A stretch of 64,000 nt of DNA from an uncultured Planctomycetota bacterium (GTDB lineage Bacteria; Planctomycetota; Planctomycetia; Isosphaerales; Isosphaeraceae): positions 64,001 through 128,000 of the forward strand of contig CAWJTV010000015.1 in assembly GCA_963845755.1 (NCBI GenBank). The letters run 5' to 3'. Shown here one piece after another: positions 36,845-47,218 of this stretch. The position numbers and the translations under genes are program-made. Numbering within the stretch: the first letter of the stretch is position 1; each line of letters starts with the position of its first letter. The notes below the pieces were generated by a model. It ran no database searches. It was not told the DNA's origin and saw nothing but the letters and a program-made list of their open reading frames with translations.

Positions 36845-39470
36845 TCATGGCCTCTCGCCAGCCCGCAGAATCAGGCGATCGACGTCGGCCCAGAGGGCCT
36901 GCCAGGTTTTCCGCTTGGCCCCGGGGAGCTTGATCAACGCATCGGGATCGCGGACGCCGGCTAGGTCGCTGTCGGCGTTCCAGTGTTGGAGGGCCTGTGC
37001 AACGCTCGCCCGCTGCTTCGGATTGCCCCCATCGAGGATTCGGCCCCAGGCCGCCAGTTCGGTCCTGAGCCAGTCGAGAGCCTGGCCGCGGAGTTTGGCA
37101 CGCGCGGGCTCGTCGGGCGCGGGATCATCCTTGCCTTTACCGCAGCCGGCCAGCGCCGCAGTGCAAGCGGCGTTGTAGGCGTGCTGAGCACGGCGATCAT
37201 CGCCGAGTTTCGGGTCGGCCGTCAGGGCTTCGGTGTACAGCAGGGCGGAGGCCGCGCGCTGTCCCTGGTTGTAGAAGAGAACGGCGAACTCGATGCCTTC
37301 AGCCGGGGTGGCGGGGTGGTCTTGGCCCTTGAGGATGGCAGGGAGGCGACCAGCGTGGGCGACCAGCCACTCGGCCTGGCGCACCCACTCGGCCGAAAGC
37401 GCACGCCATCCGGGCTGCTTCAAACCGAGTTCGGGTCCCGTCTTGTACTCGCGGAGCGATTCTTCATAAAGCCCTTGGGCGCGCAAGGCTTCACCGAGAT
37501 TGGTGTGGGCCGTGACGTTGTTGGGCGTGAGTCGGACAATGGTGAGGAATTCGTCGGTCGCCTCATCGAGTTTACCTTGATCGCTCAGGGCGACGCCGAG
37601 ATTATGATGGGCCAAGACGTCGTCGGGCTTCAGTCGGATGGCGGAGCGATATTCGGCGAAACCCTCGTCGTGCATTCCCTGAGGCGCAGGGCGTTGTCGA
37701 GGTTCCTGTGGGCCGTGGCGTTGCTGGGCGTGAGTCGGACGATGGTGCGGAATTCGGCGATCGCCTCATCGTCCTTCCCCTGAGCGAGGAGGGCGAGACC
37801 GAGGTTGTGATGGGCTGCGGCGAGGTCGGGCTGGAGTCGGGTGGCGGTACGATATGCGGCAATCGCCGCCTCGTGCTTCCCCTGAGTGCGAAGGGCGTTG
37901 CCGAGGTTGTGGTGGGCCAGGACGTAGCCGGGGTGGAGTCGGATGGCGGTGCGATACTCGGCGATCGCCTCATCGTGCTTCCTCTGGGCAGACAGGGTGT
38001 TGCCGAGGTACGTCTGGGCCGGATTGCTACCGGGCCGGATCGCAATCGCGGCCGTCAGGTGCCGCACCGCCTCCTCCGGTTGCACCGCATAGGCCAGGTC
38101 GTAGTTCACCCAGAAGTCGTCCGGACGCAATCGCCAGGCCTGGCACAGAGCCGCGCCGCACCGTCCCGATCGCCGACCGCCTTCAGCCGCAGGGCGAGTA
38201 GCCGCAGGCTCTCGGCGGGCTGAGCGTCCAGTGCCTTCTCATCACCGGCCAGCTTGTGGAGGGCCTCGACCGGCGCGGCGTCCCTGGCACTGGAGCCGGT
38301 GCGCAGGGCATCGCGCAGGGATCGGGGTCGGCGGCGCGGGCCGCCGCTATCAGCCGAGCCGAGGCTTTCTCATCGGCGCGGGCCGCACGGCGGACCATGG
38401 TCCAGTCGTCCAGGAAGGAGGCCAGCTCAATCGGCGCGCTGCGGCCGGCGATCCAGGCGCCGGCCTGCTTGGGGTCGGTGGCATCCTGGTCAAGTCCGGC
38501 CTTGCGGAAGGCGGCGGCATACTCGGCGTTGGACCGCTTTGGATCGTTTTGGTCGGCGCGATCGCCACGGGCCGCTTCCAAGTCGGCCAGGAGTTTGCGA
38601 TCGGTCTCGAGCCGCTCAGCCTGGAGCAAGGCTTCCTGGCGGCCTCGCTCCCGTTCGGCGATGACGCGGACGATCTGGTCCTTGCGCTCCAGGTCGGCCA
38701 GTTCCGGCATCTGGTCGGCGGCGCGGTTGGCCTCGGCCATCGCTTCGTCCCAGGGACTGACCGTGCCGGCCGGGGCGGCGTGGGCCCCTGGCTTTCAAGA
38801 CGATGACGTGGTCCAGGATCCCGGCGATCTCGTGGGCAACCACGGCACGGCGGGCGTTGCGGTCGGAGACCATCCAGGCCGCCCCGCCACCGCCCAGGAT
38901 CAAGGTGGCGACGATGGCCGCGGCCAAACCGGCGGTCATACGCCGCGCCCGTAGCTCGGCCCGGGCCTTGCGCTCGGCCTCAACGGCGCGGGCGGTCTCA
39001 TCCGCCCGGGCCAGTTCGGCGGTACGCAACCGCTCCTGGACGCCGGCCTGGTAATCGGTCAGTCGGTCGACCACGATCCGCGGGCGGTCGAGTAGCTCGG
39101 CGCCAGGCAGGACCTGGCCAGCTCGATCAGTTCAGACTCGGCATCGCTGGCGTCAACCCGGGCGAAGGCGTCGGACAGGTCGTCGCGGAGGGCTTTGCGG
39201 AAGACGGAGCTGCCGTCCGGGCCGGTGTAGGGCGGAGAACCGGTCAGGATTTCGCAAAGGATCGCGCCCAGGCCGAATACGTCGGCCCGCCCGTCAAGCG
39301 CCTCGATGTCGCCGTGGCCTGCTCGGGGGGCATGTAGGCCGGCGTTCCCATCACGCTGCCGGCCTGCGAGGCGTCGGCATCGGAGCCGGTCCGTAGCGTG
39401 CGGATGACGCTCACCTGCTCACGCCGCTCGACGGCCCGAGTTTCGTCGGCCACCCCGCCCGAGGCCTGCA
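36845..39470 (-). pseudogene. Ser/Thr kinase (C-lobe only)-TM-TPR protein, multiply frameshifted
   Basis: GSVMGTPAYMPPEQA, a TM helix, PDDFWVN, repeated AHHNLG..L..QGK.DEAIAEY TPR units, YNAAC.AALAGCG and QALDWLRTEL tail. Confidence 0.8.
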
Positions 39471-39981
39471 CCTCGGCCAGCAGGGTGAGCGCCCAGTCGC
39501 GCTCGAAGAGCCGTTCCGGAGTCAGGTCGTGGCCTTGGTCGGCGCCGGAACGCCCTTCCGCCGCGCCCGAGTCGATCGACACGAATGTCCGACCACCGCC
39601 GCGTGTGAACGCGACTGCTCGATCATGTGCGTTGGCCAGGACGTGTATGCAATCCGTGAGCAGGAACGCGCGGAACCGCCCCTTATGGCGGTCGGCACTG
39701 GCGAGCACGGGTTTCTCCAACAGGCGGACGAAGTAGTCCTGGGTCAGGTCGAGTGCAGTGCTGGGATCGTGCCCCTTACGCCGAATCAGCGCATAGACCG
39801 GGAACCAATACGTGGCGCACAGCTCTGCCAGGGCGTCGCGCGCGTCGGGATGCCCTGGGTCGGCGGCGGCGACGCGGCTCCAGCACGTCGAAGGGAAGCG
39901 GGCATCCGAAGGTCTCTCGGATATGGTCCGTTCCGTGCAATGGGGAGCGATTGGGTGACACGCGCAAGTGCGAACCGTCAC
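39470..39981 (-). pseudogene. Kinase-associated ECF sigma-70 factor lacking region 4, fused to the kinase fragment
   Basis: FPSTCWSRV..ALAELCATYWFPVYALIRRKG..DLTQDYF..GRFRAFL..RGGG..PERLFERDWA. Confidence 0.82.
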
Positions 39982-40478
39982 GCCAACTCACCGACCTTCG
40001 CCTTGACGAGGCGCTCGATTTCCTCGACGGCAAAGTCGGTCGCTTCTTGCACCCGGCGTTGCGAGCCGCGCCCGGAGGACTCGATCTGCTTGCGAGCCTG
40101 CTGCCGTATCGACCGAATGGCGACCTTGGCATCCTCGCCGAGCTTCTTGACGTACCGGGCGATCTCCTGTCGCTGCTCGATGCTGATCGGTGGTACGCTG
40201 ACGCTGACCGTCGTCGGGTTGAGCGCGTACGCGCTGAGCCGCGACTCGTTCAGCGCCTTGACCATCGCCGGGACGTTGACCCGATCGAAGGGGATGATCA
40301 GGATCCGGTCCCCTCGTGCCTGGACAGCCCCGAGGCGTTTGATGGCGACCAGGTTCCCCTGGCACGAGACCCGGACAGTCTCGATCATTCCGATGCTGAT
40401 CGTGCCCGTCCGGATCCCGCGGAGCTGATCGGCAAAGTGCCGGACCATTTTCTCAATCCTGGGCTGCCAGTCGTTCAT
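39978..40478 (-). CDS. Divergent ribosome recycling factor paralogue (frr-like), 166 aa
   Basis: IRTG, IIPFD, VPPISIEQRQEI, EDAKVAIRSIR, VQEATD..VEEIE..K..EL follow the RRF pattern; not in a tsf-pyrH context. Confidence 0.82.
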   Translation of the reverse strand: MNDWQPRIEKMVRHFADQLRGIRTGTISIGMIETVRVSCQGNLVAIKRLGAVQARGDRILIIPFDRVNVPAMVKALNESRLSAYALNPTTVSVSVPPISIEQRQEIARYVKKLGEDAKVAIRSIRQQARKQIESSGRGSQRRVQEATDFAVEEIERLVKAKVGELA

Positions 40479-40576
40479 GTGCAGTCCTGTGTTGATCGAT
40501 GATCCCGAACCCGTGCAGAATCCGGCGCATCTGCCTCGTGATCGGATTCCGATAAAGCTTGGAGGGATCAGCCGCC

Positions 40577-41479
40577 ATGAGCACCTTGCAACGACTGACC
40601 GACCGCGGCCTGATCAAACCTCCACGATGGCTGCCGGGCGGTGTCCAGTACGAGACGATTATGGGCTCGGTCGCCTACGGCGTCTCGTCCGACACCAGCG
40701 ATCTGGACCTCTACGGCTGGGCGATCCCTCCCCGAGACGACGTCTTCCCCCACCTCAGGGGGGAGATTCCCGGCTTCGGCACTCCGAAACCCCGGTTTCA
40801 ACGATATCAGGAGCACTACGTCGTTGACCACGATGCCCTCGGTGGCCGTGGGCGAACTTACGACCTGCAGATCTACGGAATCGTCAAGTTCTTCAACCTG
40901 GCGATGCAGAATAACCTTAATATCATCGACTCGCTCTTTACACCGGTGAACTGCGTCCTGCACAGCACGCGTGTGGGGGATCTCGTGCGCGAGAACCGGA
41001 AACTGTTCCTGCACAGAGGCTCCTGGTCGCGATTCAAGAACTATGCGTACTCGCAATTGCACAAGCTGTCCACGAAGAGCGCCCAGGGGAAGCGGGCCGA
41101 CATCGTGGCCGAGCACGGTCTCGACACGAAGTTCGCCTACCATGTCGTTCGCCTCATCCTCGAAGTCGAGCAGATCATAGTCGAGGGCGACATCGACCTT
41201 CAGCGGAACCACGAACAGCTCAAGGCCATCCGTCGGGGAGATTGGACCGAAGCGCACCTCCGGGACTGGTTCTCAGCCAAGGAGTCGGAGCTCGAAAAGG
41301 TCTACTCCGAGAGCAAGCTCCCGTCCGCACCCGATGAAGATCAGATTCGATTGCTGCTGCTGAACTGCCTGGAACACCATTACGGCCTCATGGAGGACTG
41401 CGTCGTCGATCCGGACCGCGCCGTGGCCGCCTTGCGGAACGTCCAGTCGGAATTGGAGAAGGTGAGAGATCTTCTATGA
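40577..41479 (+). CDS. Pol-beta-superfamily nucleotidyltransferase (PF10127/RlaP-like)
   Basis: MGSVAYG..SDLDLYG, KFF.LA..NN.NIIDSLF, YAYSQL, DTKFAYHVVRL, LKAIRRG. Confidence 0.88.
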   Translation: MSTLQRLTDRGLIKPPRWLPGGVQYETIMGSVAYGVSSDTSDLDLYGWAIPPRDDVFPHLRGEIPGFGTPKPRFQRYQEHYVVDHDALGGRGRTYDLQIYGIVKFFNLAMQNNLNIIDSLFTPVNCVLHSTRVGDLVRENRKLFLHRGSWSRFKNYAYSQLHKLSTKSAQGKRADIVAEHGLDTKFAYHVVRLILEVEQIIVEGDIDLQRNHEQLKAIRRGDWTEAHLRDWFSAKESELEKVYSESKLPSAPDEDQIRLLLLNCLEHHYGLMEDCVVDPDRAVAALRNVQSELEKVRDLL

Positions 41480-42266
41480 GTCATCCCGACGAGAACGATC
41501 CGGCCGCCCCCGATCGGTTGCAGGCCGTCGTGTCCCGGCAGTCGTATCCTCTGATTATCGTGACGATCAGCGGCGCGCACCTCTAAGGCTTTCCCTCGCC
41601 AGATTCGGACCACGACCTGCGAGGCTGCCAATTCCTGCCCATCGAGGAAGCCGCCGGGCTCGATGCGGGACGAGAGACCATCGAGTCTTCGACGGACGAA
41701 TCAGGCGTCGAGGTCAACTTGGTGACCCACGATGCCAGGAAGTTCTTCAAGCTGCTGCTCGCGAAGAACGGCTACCTCCTGGAGCAGTTGTATTCGCCGC
41801 TGGTCGTCCTCACAACGCCCGAACATGAGGATCTGAAATCCATTGCACGCGGATGCATCACTCGGCATCATAACCACCATTACCGTGGTTTCGCGAGGCC
41901 CTGTGGCGGCTATTCGCCCGGGACATCCCGTCGCGAATCAAGCCGCTGCTGTATGTGTATCGCGTACTGCTGACGGGTATCCACCTCCTGCGAACGGGTG
42001 AGGTCGAAGCGATCCTCCTGCGTCTCAACGAGAACGCCCGACTTCTCCAACTCGGTGACCTGATCGTTCGCAAGCTCGAAAGGACGGAGGGAGTCCGCTT
42101 GGACGATGGCGACCTGGAGTTCCATGGGCGCGAGTACGAACGACTCCAGGGCGAACTGGAACAGGCCCACCGCGATAGCCGGATGCCGGAAGGACCGACT
42201 GCCCGACAGGCGCTCAACGATCTACTGGTCCGACTCAGGTTCGCGACCAACCGTCAAGGCCACTGA
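41476..42266 (+). pseudogene. Second PF10127/YcgL-like nucleotidyltransferase; in-frame TAA at 41584 and frameshift near 41900
   Basis: ISGAHL*GFPSPDSDHDLRG, HDARKFFKLLL.KNGYLLEQL, HHYRGFA, KPLLYVYRVLLTGIHL; ATGA overlap with the upstream NTase. Confidence 0.85.
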
Positions 42267-42308
42267 TTCCGTGATCCCCCATCGGGTGGCCAAGGACCGG
42301 TTTCCCGT

Positions 42309-42701
42309 TCAATCGGTCTTGCCAAGCCGCTTGAGTGCTTTCGCCGCCAGGTCGCGAGCGCGGGAGTCCTTGTCGGTCTTGCTCAGCGTGTCGAGCTGGT
42401 CCTTGATCGCATCACCGGGCTGTTTCAACTTGACCACCGCCAGGACCGCGTCACGACGGACCAGCGGGTCGGTATCGTGGAGCGCCTCCGCCAGGGCGTC
42501 CGCCACCGTGGGGTCGGAGTCGCCGACATTGCCGAGCTTGAGCACCGCTTGCCGTCGCACCTGCGGCTTGGGGTCATGCAGCTCGGCGATCCAGGATTTC
42601 ACCTCGCGGCCGCCCGCCAGTAGCGGCCCAGGCGCCTCGCCGCTGCAGCCAGCCAGCACGATCGCGAACAGCAAACTTGACAGAACTTGGGTCCGTTGCA
42701 T
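42309..42701 (-). CDS. HEAT-repeat lipoprotein
   Basis: Lipobox LAGC; LHDPKPQVRRQAV and LHDTDPLVRRDAV repeats. Confidence 0.85.
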   Translation of the reverse strand: MQRTQVLSSLLFAIVLAGCSGEAPGPLLAGGREVKSWIAELHDPKPQVRRQAVLKLGNVGDSDPTVADALAEALHDTDPLVRRDAVLAVVKLKQPGDAIKDQLDTLSKTDKDSRARDLAAKALKRLGKTD

Positions 42702-42713
42702 GCGCCATCACTT

Positions 42714-43694
42714 TCAATACGAGTCCGAGCTGATGACCTCGCCGCCGGCCCGCGTACCGAGCGCCTGGAGGACCAAACTCGAAGGGGTATAACGGGTCGA
42801 GCCGTCGGGGTTGACGCCCGCGTCGTTCGTAACGTTCCTGAGGAAGTGTACCGACCCGTCGGCGAAGAGGGCGTTCGCGCCTCCAGGATGGAAGCTCGAC
42901 GGATCGTCCAGGCCGCTGTCGGTGTCGGCATTGGTGTTGAGCAAGTGGCAATGCGCCAGGACCAAACACGGGGCGAGATAAGTCGCATACGCCGATCCAG
43001 GACACGGGTTATATGGCCCGCGTAGAACGACGCCACCCGGAACCGCCCCGCACCAGGTCCCCTCCGTGTCTCCCCAGGCGCGCTCCAGGAGTAAGATCGT
43101 CTGGCTCGTGCCGTCGACGATCGCCGCCATGCGCACCCCGCTATTTCGGTAGAATGGGCCGTTGCCCGAGCCATCGTTGTTCAGACCCAGGGCGACGTCG
43201 GCAGCGTCGCTGCCCGTGCTGGCCGCATAGGAGCTCGCCGCGACCGTCGCGACCGTCGTTCCCAGCCCGTCAGTGACCGGGTACGTCCCGCCCATGGTAA
43301 GCTGATCGGATGGGCAGAGGAATGCGCTCAGGATTGTCCGGGTGCCGGTCGTATTCGCCGGGGTCTGGATGGGGAGCCAGACGTTGATCGACGAATACAA
43401 AGGTGCCTGGTCGAGTTGCGGCAGGATCATCGCCGCCCAACTCCAGCCCGGCGACGTGTCGGTCTCACCATCGATGAATCGGCTCGCAGCGATGTAACCC
43501 GGCGGGAAGATCAACAAGGCATCATGATAGTTGTGCAGGGCCAAGCCCATTTGTTTCAGGTTGTTCACGCACTGAGTTCGCCGCGCCGCCTCGCGCGCCG
43601 CCTGCACCGCAGGGAGCAGCAAGGCGATCAGGACGGCGATGATCGCGATCACCACTAAGAGCTCAATCAGAGTGAATCCACGCTGCCGCTTCAT
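42714..43694 (-). CDS. DUF1559 prepilin-type N-terminal cleavage protein (H-X9-DG C-terminus)
   Basis: GFTLIELLVVIAIIAVLIALLLPAVQAAREAARR.QC.NNLKQ; SFHPGGANALFADGSV. Confidence 0.96.
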   Translation of the reverse strand: MKRQRGFTLIELLVVIAIIAVLIALLLPAVQAAREAARRTQCVNNLKQMGLALHNYHDALLIFPPGYIAASRFIDGETDTSPGWSWAAMILPQLDQAPLYSSINVWLPIQTPANTTGTRTILSAFLCPSDQLTMGGTYPVTDGLGTTVATVAASSYAASTGSDAADVALGLNNDGSGNGPFYRNSGVRMAAIVDGTSQTILLLERAWGDTEGTWCGAVPGGVVLRGPYNPCPGSAYATYLAPCLVLAHCHLLNTNADTDSGLDDPSSFHPGGANALFADGSVHFLRNVTNDAGVNPDGSTRYTPSSLVLQALGTRAGGEVISSDSY

Positions 43695-43984: not shown

Positions 43985-46900
43985 TCAGGGTTCGTTTACG
44001 TTGAGATTCGCGTTCAAGACTTTGCTGATCCGGAACTGGATCTCCTTGAGGTGGGCCAGGGTGGTGTCCTCCATCTTGAGGTCCTTCTTGCCCACGAGGG
44101 TCTCGATCTTCCGGCCGACTTCGTCGAGGTGCAGCCGGGCGAGGTTCTTGGCGTCCGGCGGGGGCGAGGACTGGCCGCCGTAAAAGAGGATATACCGGTA
44201 GCCGCCAAGTGAGTAGTCGTTCTTGGGCCCGAGGACCATGTCGCTGAGCCGCTTGACGTATTCGCGCTGAAGGTTGCGGCGAATTGTCGAGATCGTGAAC
44301 GGCGAGCTGCCCGAAGGTGGCGCGCCCAGCTCGGTGAAGATCCCGTCGCTCAAGGAGCGGAAGACCTCGGCGATCTTCAGCGGGTTGCTGCCGGCCTCGC
44401 TCTGCGTCTCCTGGTTCTGGATCCGCTGGAGCACGCTGGAATCGAGGCACTGATCCAGTGCGATTTCCTGGAGGTTGAGGATCATCCGGTAGATGGGGTA
44501 ATCCATGCCGCCGTAGAAAGAGTAGCGACTGTCCTGCCACGACTCGGTCATGAGCTTGCGCAGCAGGCCGGGCGAGAACTGAAACGCCTTGTCGCTGAGG
44601 ATCTGGTCCACCAGCAGTTTGAGGGCGTCGCGCTGGCGGGCGCCCACGATAGGCGTGATGGGATCGCGCGCCTTGTCGGTCCCCTTGAAGTCGCGGTTGA
44701 CCGACTGACCGCCGATGTATTCGGCCGCGAGATAAGCCCCATTGCCGAACTGGCTGATGCAGGAGGAGAACGCGCTGCGGAGCCGCGCCGAGGATTCCCC
44801 GTCCTTGACGACCTTCTTGTCCAGGTCCTTGAGCAACTCGCCGGCCAGGGTCATCCGCATCTTGCCATAGGCCAGGGTGTCGGAGGTCAGGTCGTACGTG
44901 TTGACCTGGGGATCGTTGTTCATGAAGTCATCGTCGGTGGCGAAGGCCAGGTCCGGCTCGGGCGATCGGGAGGCGAGCTTCTTCAGCTCGGATTCGTCCG
45001 TCGTGTAGGCATACGCGATCGCCCAGTAGTCGTAAGGCCCGATCGTAGTCGAACGCGTAGTCCCCCTGCTTCTGGCCCTTGGGAGCCACGTTGATAGGGT
45101 TGTAGTCCATCACGCTGCCGGCCATCCCCTTGACCCGGGTGATCGCAGTATCGTTGACCTCCTCGGGCTTGAGCATGATGCTGGCCTTGAAGTTGTGCCG
45201 CAGACCCAGCGAGTGGCCGACCTCGTGCATGACGACTTCCTTGATCGCCTGGCCGAGGAACTCATCCGGGAGCTTGACTTCTTTCTCCTTTTCCTTGTCC
45301 TTCTTGTCCTTGTCGGCGTCCTTCTTGTCCTTGTCGGCGTCCTTCTTCTTGTCCTTGTCGGCGTCCTTCTTCTTGTCCTTGTCGGCGTCCGCGTCCTCCG
45401 AAGCGGCCATGGCCAGGGCCAGGCTGGCGAACCGCATCTCGTGGGACTTGGCCGCCGCGTAGTTGCAGGTGGCCAACCGGCCGTTGGTCAATCGCTGGCG
45501 GAGCTGGACCTGGATCGGATCCCATCCTGCGGGCACCACGTCGAGCGCGACGGGGATGTTCCCGTTCGCTGGCGCGACCGAGCCGGGCAGGCCGTTATGG
45601 CCGAGCAGCGCCGCATTCAGGGCCGCGGCGCGTCGGGTGCCCGGCGGGGGCACGGGCAGCCCATAGCCTTGTTTCATCGCCATGATCGGGCTGATGATCT
45701 CCCCCATGGCCAGGGGGACCATGCCGGCGGAGAGATCGGCCCGGGTTCCCGTGGCCGTTGGGGTCGGTACGCCGACCAGGAACGCGTACTCTTCCTTCCA
45801 CGTCTTGATCCAGCTCGCGTCGAAGATCACGTCGCCATCGATCATTTCGCCAGTAATCGGATTGCTACGGAGTCCCGACATCGCGAAGGTCGAGCCCGTG
45901 GTAATCCAGCGCAGGGTGCAGTAGTTGATGTCCTCCGGTTCGAAGTCATCGCGCTCGTTCTGCCAGCGCACGGCGATGGCGTCCTTGAAGCCGATCTTCT
46001 CGAAGGCCTTGTTCCACTCGAGGATCCCCTCCTGGACATAGGGCCGATATTCATCGGGCACGTTGTCTTCGATGTACCAGACGATCTGCTTCTTGGGGGG
46101 AGAGCTTGGCGCCGTGGTTGGCCTTCTCGAGCCGCCACCGATTGATCATTCGCTTGGCGTTGGTGTCCGGATTGGGGTTGGCGAAGTCGGTGACCGCGTT
46201 GAGGAAGTGGCCGACGCGGTAGTCCGCCATCCGGGAGTGATATCCGGGATCCGGCGTCTTGCACAGGCTGTAATGCAACACCAGGGTGATGCCGCGCGGG
46301 TCGACCACGGGCGATTCACCTCCGAAGTAGTACCTTCCGAATCGGCCGCCGCTGAAGGTCGCCTCCACCTGGATCTCGACATTCTCGGGATAGGCGCGGA
46401 TCTTGAACCATCGCGAGCGGTTGCGGTCCAGGAACCCGTAACCGATCTCGGCGAAATCGGTCATGAAGATGTCGGCGAAGTCGATGACCAGCCCGCCGCC
46501 CCTGGGGCTGATGCTCAGGATCGGCAAGGCCATGAGGATCGAGTCGGTGTAGTTCTGCTTGACCGCCTTGTCCAGCGGGGTTCCCGACGGCGCGGTGAAG
46601 TGGATGTTCTTGCGGATGAGCTGGAGCTTGTCTCCGACCCGGTGGAACATCAGCACCCACTCATCGCCGAAATTGAGGGGCGTCCCCGCGCTGGCGGAGC
46701 CCCGGGCGATGACCATCGGAGCCAGGATCGGATGATCGAGCAGTTGCGGCTTGATCTCGGCGTAGAGGTGCTGGTCCTTCTCATGGAGCGTGATATAACC
46801 TTCGTAGGTCTTCGCGCCCTGGGTCAACTGGTTGAAGTCCTGAAACTGCCGTCCTGGCGTCGGGCGGCCGAACTGTCGGGCCGTCGACCGGACCTCGACC

Positions 46901-47004
46901 GCGACAGGGGGGTCTTCGAACTCCTGGGCGTACGTTGACTGCGCGATGCCCCCAGTCGCTAACAAACCCCCGGAGAGCGCCATCAGAAGCACTCGCTTTA
47001 TCAT
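43985..47004 (-). CDS. Secreted zinc metalloprotease (DUF5117/EcxA-like); frameshifts near 46095 and 45050
   Basis: DYRVGHF, INRWRLEK, GILEWNKAFEKIG, HEVGHSLGLRHN, SVMDY, IRRNLQREY. Confidence 0.9.
45297..45390 (-). repeat. Intragenic 21/24-bp tandem repeat encoding DADKDKK(K), four copies
   Basis: Repeated ttcttgtccttgtcggcgtcc units. Confidence 0.85.
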
Positions 47005-47218
47005 CGCTTCGTCCCCCAATCAAGGTTGCTCGTGAAATGGTGTCGTGATCGACATGATCAATCCGAAAAGTCAGCCTCGGCCTTGCGGTTTCGCCATGCG
47101 TCAAAGACGATGTACCTAGAATACACCTCGCCTCGGACGATAGTAAATGTTCTAGTGAATTCGGTCGGCGGGTCTTCGATCCTTAGTCCATGGTCTTTCG
47201 TCCTTTGTGATCAGACGC

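Follow-up and report, generated by a model that had tools for sequence, protein, structure and literature searches.

Closest described systems and the locus

The closest described systems to the locus that we report here are canonical ribosome recycling factor, the RlaP enzymes and the PrfH-RtcB pair. Canonical ribosome recycling factor (RRF, encoded by frr; families PF01765 and TIGR00496) is regarded as the product of a single-copy, essential housekeeping gene in bacteria. The RlaP nucleotidyltransferases (NTases) owe their family name to an RNA ligase neighbourhood. Members encoded in rtcB-rtcA operons include PfRlaP and PaRlaP; a preprint reports that Pseudomonas RlaP adds one or two nucleoside monophosphates to RNA 3′-OH ends, with damaged RNA being preferred (PMC12776372), an activity that is known only for the Pseudomonas enzymes. 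In the PrfH-RtcB system a release-factor paralogue is paired with an RNA ligase, for rescue and repair (reviewed in PMC6514570). Our locus lies in a stretch of 64,000 nucleotides (the window: positions 64,001 to 128,000 of contig CAWJTV010000015.1, assembly GCA_963845755.1) from an uncultured soil planctomycete of the Isosphaeraceae. It consists of a gene for an RRF paralogue, RRF2, back-to-back with two genes for RlaP-type NTases, NT1 and NT2, which a sequence-only reading of the window had put forward as a candidate module for RNA repair and ribosome rescue. The features are listed below, with positions in the window.

39978..40478, minus strand: RRF2, 166 aa, with a shortened three-helix domain and an SGRGS tip
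40479..40576: 98-bp spacer from which RRF2 and NT1 diverge, with starts set by conserved N-termini
40577..41479, plus strand: NT1, RlaP/PF10127 Pol-beta nucleotidyltransferase, divergent to RRF2, 300 aa from ATG 40577
41476..41586, plus strand: NT2 piece 1, from a start ATG overlapping the NT1 stop to an in-frame TAA (41584-41586)
41587..41895, plus strand: NT2 piece 2, in the frame of piece 1, up to a frameshift; PF10127 match
41896..42266, plus strand: NT2 piece 3, in a different frame after the loss of one base at about 41895/41896; PF10127 match

We give a probability of about 0.55 to the explanation that RRF2 is a specialised accessory paralogue of RRF which needs no obligate help from the NTases, and that its back-to-back arrangement with them is ancestral and dispensable.

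Compared with canonical RRF, RRF2 is alike in its Pfam family, its predicted two-domain fold and its aligned arginines. It differs in being a second copy, outside the tsf-pyrH-frr context, which is 39% identical to the canonical RRF of the same genome and scores below the frr equivalog cut-off; in being some 19-21 residues shorter (at the N-terminus, in the helix hairpin and at the C-terminus), with a conserved SGRGS hairpin; and in being dispensable, as it is found in 49 of the 121 Isosphaeraceae-like genomes that made up our family sample. Set against PfRlaP and PaRlaP (PMC12776372), the NT2 orthologues are full-length PF10127 proteins and NT1 a partial one, with the Pol-beta motif present in both; NT1 and NT2 are, however, a translationally coupled pair of distant paralogues (24% identical), without an adjacent RtcB or other RNA ligase, and their RlaP-type activity is predicted. 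The likeness to PrfH-RtcB (PMC6514570) is one of concept: a paralogue of a core ribosome factor stands beside an RNA-end-repair enzyme. Here, though, the factor is an RRF and not a release factor, the enzyme is an NTase and not a ligase, the genes are divergent and not operonic, and the linkage is found in 8 of 51 RRF2 loci.

The RRF and RlaP families are both known already, and RRF2 itself is annotated by pipelines; all the named clusters among its 120 best database clusters are called simply ‘ribosome recycling factor’. A shortened second RRF that is conserved within a bacterial family, and its recurrent pairing with RlaP genes, appear to be undescribed; literature phrase searches returned no description of bacterial RRF paralogues, in results that were partly swamped by ‘frr2’ noise and are not proof of absence. 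A second RRF in approximately 40% of one family, restructured at the tip that meets the catalytic region of the ribosome, would be a natural experiment in specialisation of the recycling step; and if RRF2 is tied to enzymes that extend RNA 3′ ends, the theme of a ribosome-factor paralogue plus RNA repair would reach beyond release factors. The presence of RRF2, at 59% identity, in a cultured relative with a complete genome (Singulisphaera sp. Ch08; locus L195) makes bench tests feasible.

RRF2 is a second RRF of its genome

The 166-aa RRF-like gene of the sequence-only reading is a real open reading frame (ORF), matching Pfam PF01765 at 97.8 bits (cut-off 29.7; E 7.8e-28; profile positions 2-163 of 164) and scoring 82.7 bits against the NCBIfam frr equivalog TIGR00496, under the cut-off of 149.1. 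Its start, ATG 40478 (MNDW...), is kept in nearly all orthologues. The open frame of NT1 (40559..41479) permits a TTG start at 40559, but the conserved N-terminus MSTLQRL favours ATG 40577. As both starts are fixed by these conserved N-termini, the divergent spacer measures 98 bp, close to the earlier estimate of about 100 bp.

The genome (14.3 Mb, completeness 87.9%) contains three PF01765 matches: the canonical one at 200.5 bits, a frameshifted partial duplicate and the window copy at 97.1 bits. The canonical frr lies on another contig, after tsf-pyrH. Thus RRF2 is a true paralogue, as the canonical tsf-pyrH-frr cluster is present elsewhere in the genome, and the suggestion that it was an extra RRF beside the housekeeping frr was well founded. 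RRF2 itself has different neighbours, which vary between loci. The partial duplicate is a near-identical, frameshifted tsf-pyrH-frr copy at a contig end (C44:113163-114935, locus L002, compared with L001 on C40), and probably represents a haplotig or a duplication made in assembly, rather than a third frr.

Distribution and origin of RRF2

The 49 family genomes with RRF2 comprise 48 with an orthologue at 50-85% identity and one with a split copy; the gene is missing in the other 72. Identity between RRF2 and the canonical RRFs of the same family genomes is merely 31-40%, and RRF2 proteins form a conserved paralogue clade of their own. No RRF2-type match (E <= 1e-33) was found in 400 other Planctomycetota genomes. 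PF01765 was matched once in 119, and not at all in one, of 120 other sampled Planctomycetota genomes of at least 85% completeness; none had two matches.

The closest canonical sequences to RRF2 are the canonical RRFs of its own family (up to 40% identity), identity to RRFs in the PDB being 18-30% and to canonical metagenome RRFs 25-36%. From this we infer that frr was duplicated within the lineage.

Metagenomes also contain short RRF-like proteins of 155-170 aa that are 29-40% identical to RRF2; they make up a broader class, as yet poorly sampled, in which the N-terminus and the helix hairpin are shortened as in RRF2 and which carry an AYxFSK motif. One Planctomycetaceae metagenome-assembled genome (G521; locus L192) has a canonical RRF (196.6 bits) and a short RRF (83.2 bits), the latter having no NTase neighbour. 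A scan of the genome collection with a narrower short-RRF alignment yielded one further genome only.

Selection, predicted fold and key residues of RRF2

Pairwise dN/dS for RRF2 was 0.14-0.29 in seven comparisons, an eighth pair being saturated, and by this codon-based measure the gene is under purifying selection. An AlphaFold2 model from 59 sequences (mean pLDDT 90.4) has helices at residues 4-20, 100-135 and 140-165 surrounding a beta-rich inserted domain. All 27 of the Foldseek matches of this model in the PDB at E <= 0.001 are RRFs (best query TM-score 0.78), with R132G and R109A mutants named in the PDB titles. We conclude with high confidence, from the model, that RRF2 is predicted to keep the two-domain, L-shaped RRF fold of a three-helix bundle and an alpha/beta insert.

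Three arginines of RRF2 (R103, R122 and R125) are invariant in the 59 sequences and correspond in the alignment to E. coli R110, R129 and R132, which are important arginines of the ribosome-binding helices of RRF. The hairpin S-G-R-G-S is among the most conserved parts of the protein; G136, G138 and S139 are invariant and R137 is nearly so. Compared with E. coli RRF, approximately 5 N-terminal residues, 10 residues of the hairpin of the last two helices and 3 C-terminal residues are missing, and the pattern of shortening is similar when RRF2 is compared with the canonical RRF of its own genome. In the topology of the model both missing stretches fall at one and the same bundle end, which, we assume, corresponds to the tip of canonical RRF that faces the peptidyl-transferase region and the acceptor end of the P-site tRNA.

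These data bear on whether RRF2 could be a decaying or functionless duplicate of frr. Decay might account for a score under the frr equivalog cut-off, for a dN/dS above expectation for a core factor and for the lack of RRF2 in 72/121 family genomes. It would not readily account for a constant protein length (almost all of the 120 best database clusters are at 165-168 aa, with few longer or truncated gene calls), for 24 invariant columns that include the ribosome-binding arginines and the tip motif, for dN/dS values (0.14-0.29) far under 1, for the confident fold prediction, or for a reading frame that is intact in 48/51 loci (split in L071 and L083, partial in L082). We therefore regard a decaying duplicate as hardly credible.

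The genome has three EF-G-like genes, on C21, C49 and C36 (L104-L106), the C36 copy being frameshifted in the assembly. We considered these as partners for RRF2 and rejected them: they occur in 107, 109 and 90 of the 121 genomes and, as all three are near-universal in the family, no EF-G-like gene tracks RRF2. PADLOC gave only a chance-level match of RRF2 to ZorA (E 0.0025).

Linkage of RRF2 to the NTase genes

Our adjacency counts rest on tblastn over ±7 kb; neighbouring genes were called by a GC1>GC2 rule, which missed RRF2 in 13 loci. The eight loci in which NT1-NT2 adjoins RRF2 are the window, L034, L036, L037, L039, L044, L063 and L054 (the last with a 1-kb gap); they represent six genera and are always divergent. 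One further RRF2 locus was uninformative, its contig ending 400 bp upstream. Outside the window, the spacer of adjacent loci is 74-163 bp in six genomes, approximately 1 kb in L054 and approximately 79 bp in three metagenome contigs. Those three come from nine RRF2-type metagenome contigs, five of which have at least 900 nt upstream, so that NT1 is divergent to RRF2 in 3/5 of the informative ones; all three fall within the lineage of RRF2 that includes L053, L054 and L057. The divergent RRF2/NT1 arrangement thus occurs in three deep RRF2 lineages and is the only neighbour common to them, and this indicates an ancestral arrangement that has been repeatedly broken.

The trees of the two proteins differ in how adjacency is spread over them. 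It is scattered over the RRF2 tree, where it takes 7 changes and 204 of 500 label shuffles needed no more; on the NT1 tree it takes 3 changes, and none of 500 shuffles came as low, with six adjacent copies in one clade (support 100/99) and two in an unresolved polytomy. The NTase pair is absent, in one genus, exactly between a HEAT gene and RRF2, and an NT1 of a different lineage lies elsewhere. In the closest clade the DUF4058, HEAT, DUF1559 and metalloprotease neighbours are kept to a similar depth, and therefore part of the adjacency is ordinary synteny.

At the level of whole genomes, essentially full-length NT1 was found in 52 of the 121 (58 matched at E <= 1e-10, of which 6 fragments were set aside). 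RRF2 and NT1 occur together in 32 genomes, RRF2 alone in 17, NT1 alone in 20 and neither in 52, giving an odds ratio of 4.9 (Fisher p 7e-5, uncorrected, and with kinship, genome size and completeness ignored). Of the 32 genomes with both, the genes are adjacent in 8 and apart in 24, by 13 kb to megabases on shared contigs.

Among the 99 immediate neighbours of the 51 RRF2 loci the most frequent is RlaP (7 loci), followed by peptidase M61 (5) and YqeY (4), with DUF4058, thioredoxin, STAS, HEAT and DUF1501 in 3 loci each; no gene cluster apart from RRF2 itself occurs in more than 12/51 loci. The supposed enrichment of NTases beside the short RRF is thus neither clearly borne out nor clearly refuted: they are its most frequent neighbour, and the only one common to deep lineages, but they adjoin it in a minority of loci. 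No RNA ligase family was found among the 99 immediate neighbours, RtcB was not found within ±6-7 kb of the 51 RRF2 loci or of the 20 NT1 loci away from RRF2, and the RtcB gene of this genome is on another contig.

Several neighbours of RRF2 are of other kinds. A YqeY-like (PF09424) gene is divergent to RRF2 in L059, L065, L070 and L074 (two genera); thioredoxin is a neighbour in three loci, in two of which it lies immediately upstream and on the RRF2 strand, and an ABC-F-type ATPase, catalase and OsmC in one each. These neighbours hint weakly at a context of translation or stress. A DUF4058 gene lies downstream of RRF2, on the same strand, in L034, L038 and L044, again in two genera.

The 98-bp spacer contains no sigma-70-like promoter that we could find. 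An Rfam scan of 39000-43000 (E <= 0.1) gave a sole match, inside the RRF2 gene, at 26.2 bits compared with a threshold of 40, and comparison by eye of the upstream regions of the 51 RRF2 loci made no common motif evident.

The linkage raises the possibility, which we consider rather unlikely, that RRF2 and NT1-NT2 act as an RNA-damage module, in which RRF2 would clear ribosomes stalled on damaged or 3′-truncated tRNA or mRNA and the RlaP enzymes would rebuild the 3′ ends, the two sides being co-regulated from the divergent spacer between them, in analogy with PrfH-RtcB. Such a module would be in keeping with the divergent adjacency over six genera and in 3/5 informative metagenome contigs, with the NTase pair being the only common neighbour in three deep RRF2 lineages, with the co-occurrence of the genes (32/17/20/52), and with the YqeY, ABC-F-type ATPase, thioredoxin, catalase and OsmC neighbours, which hint at tRNA or translation and at stress; it also suits the action of RlaP on damaged RNA 3′ ends (PMC12776372). 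It is harder to reconcile with the separation of RRF2 and NT1 in 24 of the 32 genomes that have both, with the 17 genomes that have RRF2 without NT1 and the 20 with the converse, and with the exact loss of the NTase pair between the HEAT gene and RRF2 in one genus. The co-occurrence test also ignores relatedness and genome size; the genes, being divergent, are not co-transcribed; no RNA ligase lies near RRF2 or the NTases, RtcB being on another contig; and NT2 is broken in the window genome, as described below. Thus, of the repair and rescue module proposed from the sequence, the recurrent arrangement, the RlaP family assignment and the co-occurrence are retained, but the arrangement is not the rule, there is no ligase and NT2 is broken. 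We also attempted a complex prediction of RRF2, NT1 and NT2, using the trio of one relative with alignments; this scored 0.00, gave no answer and counts neither way.

The NT1-NT2 cassette

NT1 scores 56.7 bits against PF10127, over positions 20-179 of the 249 in the profile; its residues G36 S37 ... S47 D48. D50 (numbering from TTG 40559) are near-invariant in 28 orthologues, and its identity across the family is 68-92%. An ATGA at 41476-41479 couples the NT1 stop to the NT2 start. In orthologues NT2 is one uninterrupted frame, and an intact orthologue from a same-genus genome (L034:5224-6003, 260 aa) scores 182.2 bits over the whole PF10127 profile. The window copy is interrupted twice. The TAA at 41584-41586 takes the place of Tyr37, which is invariant in 19 orthologues, in the motif ...SGAHLYGFPSPDSD.D. 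Further on, the window reads GCGAG where the orthologue protein (...GFAEAQW...) requires GCGGAG, placing the last 123 codons out of frame. Piece 2 scores 78.3 bits over profile positions 32-134 and runs colinear with the orthologue as far as residue 140, and piece 3 scores 34 bits over positions 136-249, so that jointly the pieces span both of these segments of PF10127.

The read check of NT2 drew on contigs of low depth from a single study with four runs, in which the frameshift site was uncovered. One short-read contig (41580-41730, depth approximately 2, from a related soil-metagenome run) matches the TAA, near the contig end, and gives weak independent support that the nonsense codon is real. 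The frameshift may be an assembly error, because the assembly contains several further split genes: RtcB, one EF-G, the duplicated tsf-pyrH-frr fragment and, in three pieces, the DUF5117/DUF4953 metalloprotease. Judged by the sequence as assembled, NT2 appears to be inactivated in the window genome. At window position 41716 there is an A in the window and a G in all three covering runs, a discrepancy due either to strain variation or to an error in the assembly.

The Pol-beta motif G[SA]-x(n)-D-x-D is near-invariant in the 28 NT1 and 19 NT2 orthologues, and is cut by the TAA in the window copy of NT2. The motifs picked out earlier (GS/GA..YG..SD.D) are therefore present and conserved in both NTase families, and profile searches placed RRF2 in PF01765 and the NTase genes in PF10127, as had been supposed. 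The description of two ATGA-coupled NTases is right as to the overlap and the family of both genes, but not as to an intact NT2.

The NTases of the window are the only PF10127 genes of the genome. Of the 20 loci in which NT1 lies away from RRF2, 13 have NT2 after NT1, one has a partial NT2 and 6 have none, and no recurring third gene was seen in them. From this gene order NT1-NT2 is best described as a self-contained, two-gene, predicted RlaP-type cassette. Neither protein had a match in PADLOC, or a sequence match among solved structures in the PDB.

The NT1 tree (L034-L103) has a star-like shape in which copies do not group by genus label, and a solo NT1 in it is almost the same as a paired one. 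This star-like form, with its mixed genera and the near-identity of solo and paired copies, suggests relocation or transfer of the cassette. It could then be that NT1-NT2 is a mobile or conflict-related pair (toxin-antitoxin-like or a defence system), whose proximity to RRF2 is due to an accidental insertion inherited by descent. The many different contexts of the cassette, the sometimes solo NT1, its patchy presence in 52/121 genomes and the placing of the NT1 of G069 and G070 (both g37) in different lineages are all consistent with such mobility. But PADLOC matched neither NT1 nor NT2, no transposase or integrase cluster recurs beside the cassette, NT1 is highly conserved at 68-92% identity, and, if the arrangement is not ancestral, three deep lineages would each need a chance insertion beside the same gene with the same orientation, which is very unlikely. 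We find this explanation improbable.

Favoured explanation

Considering this evidence together, we favour RRF2 as an accessory, specialised paralogue. Most likely, frr was duplicated in an ancestor of the Isosphaeraceae-like family, giving rise to RRF2. The protein would dock in the A/P-site cleft of the 50S subunit as RRF does, and its remodelled tip may suit a state of the ribosome which canonical RRF handles poorly, such as stalled ribosomes, those with damaged tRNA or hibernating ones. RRF2 would then be a dispensable, condition-specific recycling or rescue factor, and not a housekeeping one. The back-to-back order of RRF2 and NT1-NT2 is probably ancestral and retained in a minority of lineages; the shared 98-bp spacer may permit co-regulation, with neither RRF2 nor the NTase pair requiring the other.

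Some observations weigh against this explanation. The dN/dS of RRF2 is relaxed for a translation factor. The functional meaning that we give to the shortened tip would follow from published ribosome-RRF structures. Short RRF-like proteins are found elsewhere, and therefore the origin of RRF2 may predate, or exceed, a single duplication within the family. The recurrence of the NTase arrangement in three lineages, with the co-occurrence odds ratio of 4.9, argues for something beyond a neutral relic.

A stronger form of the module, which we think doubtful, is that RRF2 and the RlaP pair are an ancient, partly eroded rescue-and-repair unit. The short bundle and glycine-rich SGRGS tip could admit RRF2 to ribosomes with a damaged, 3′-less or peptidyl tRNA in the P site, from which canonical RRF would be sterically excluded; RRF2 would split or clear these ribosomes, and NT1-NT2 would then restore the RNA 3′ end, making the unit an RRF-based counterpart of PrfH-RtcB.

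Neighbouring genes in the window

Directly downstream of RRF2 on the minus strand (36845-39981) are about five overlapping ORFs with a local GC content of 0.70, which show a weak match to ECF-sigma region 2, a kinase-like remnant and TPR repeats. Together they resemble a single large sigma/kinase/TPR gene that frameshifts have disrupted. Beyond the NTase pair, a Met-zincin protease with DUF5117/DUF5118 and DUF4953 is encoded on the minus strand at 43985-47019 in three successive ORFs (322, 377 and 312 aa). In the relative L039 the same protease is a single ORF of 991 aa; thus its splitting in the window indicates frameshifts in the assembly or in the genome.

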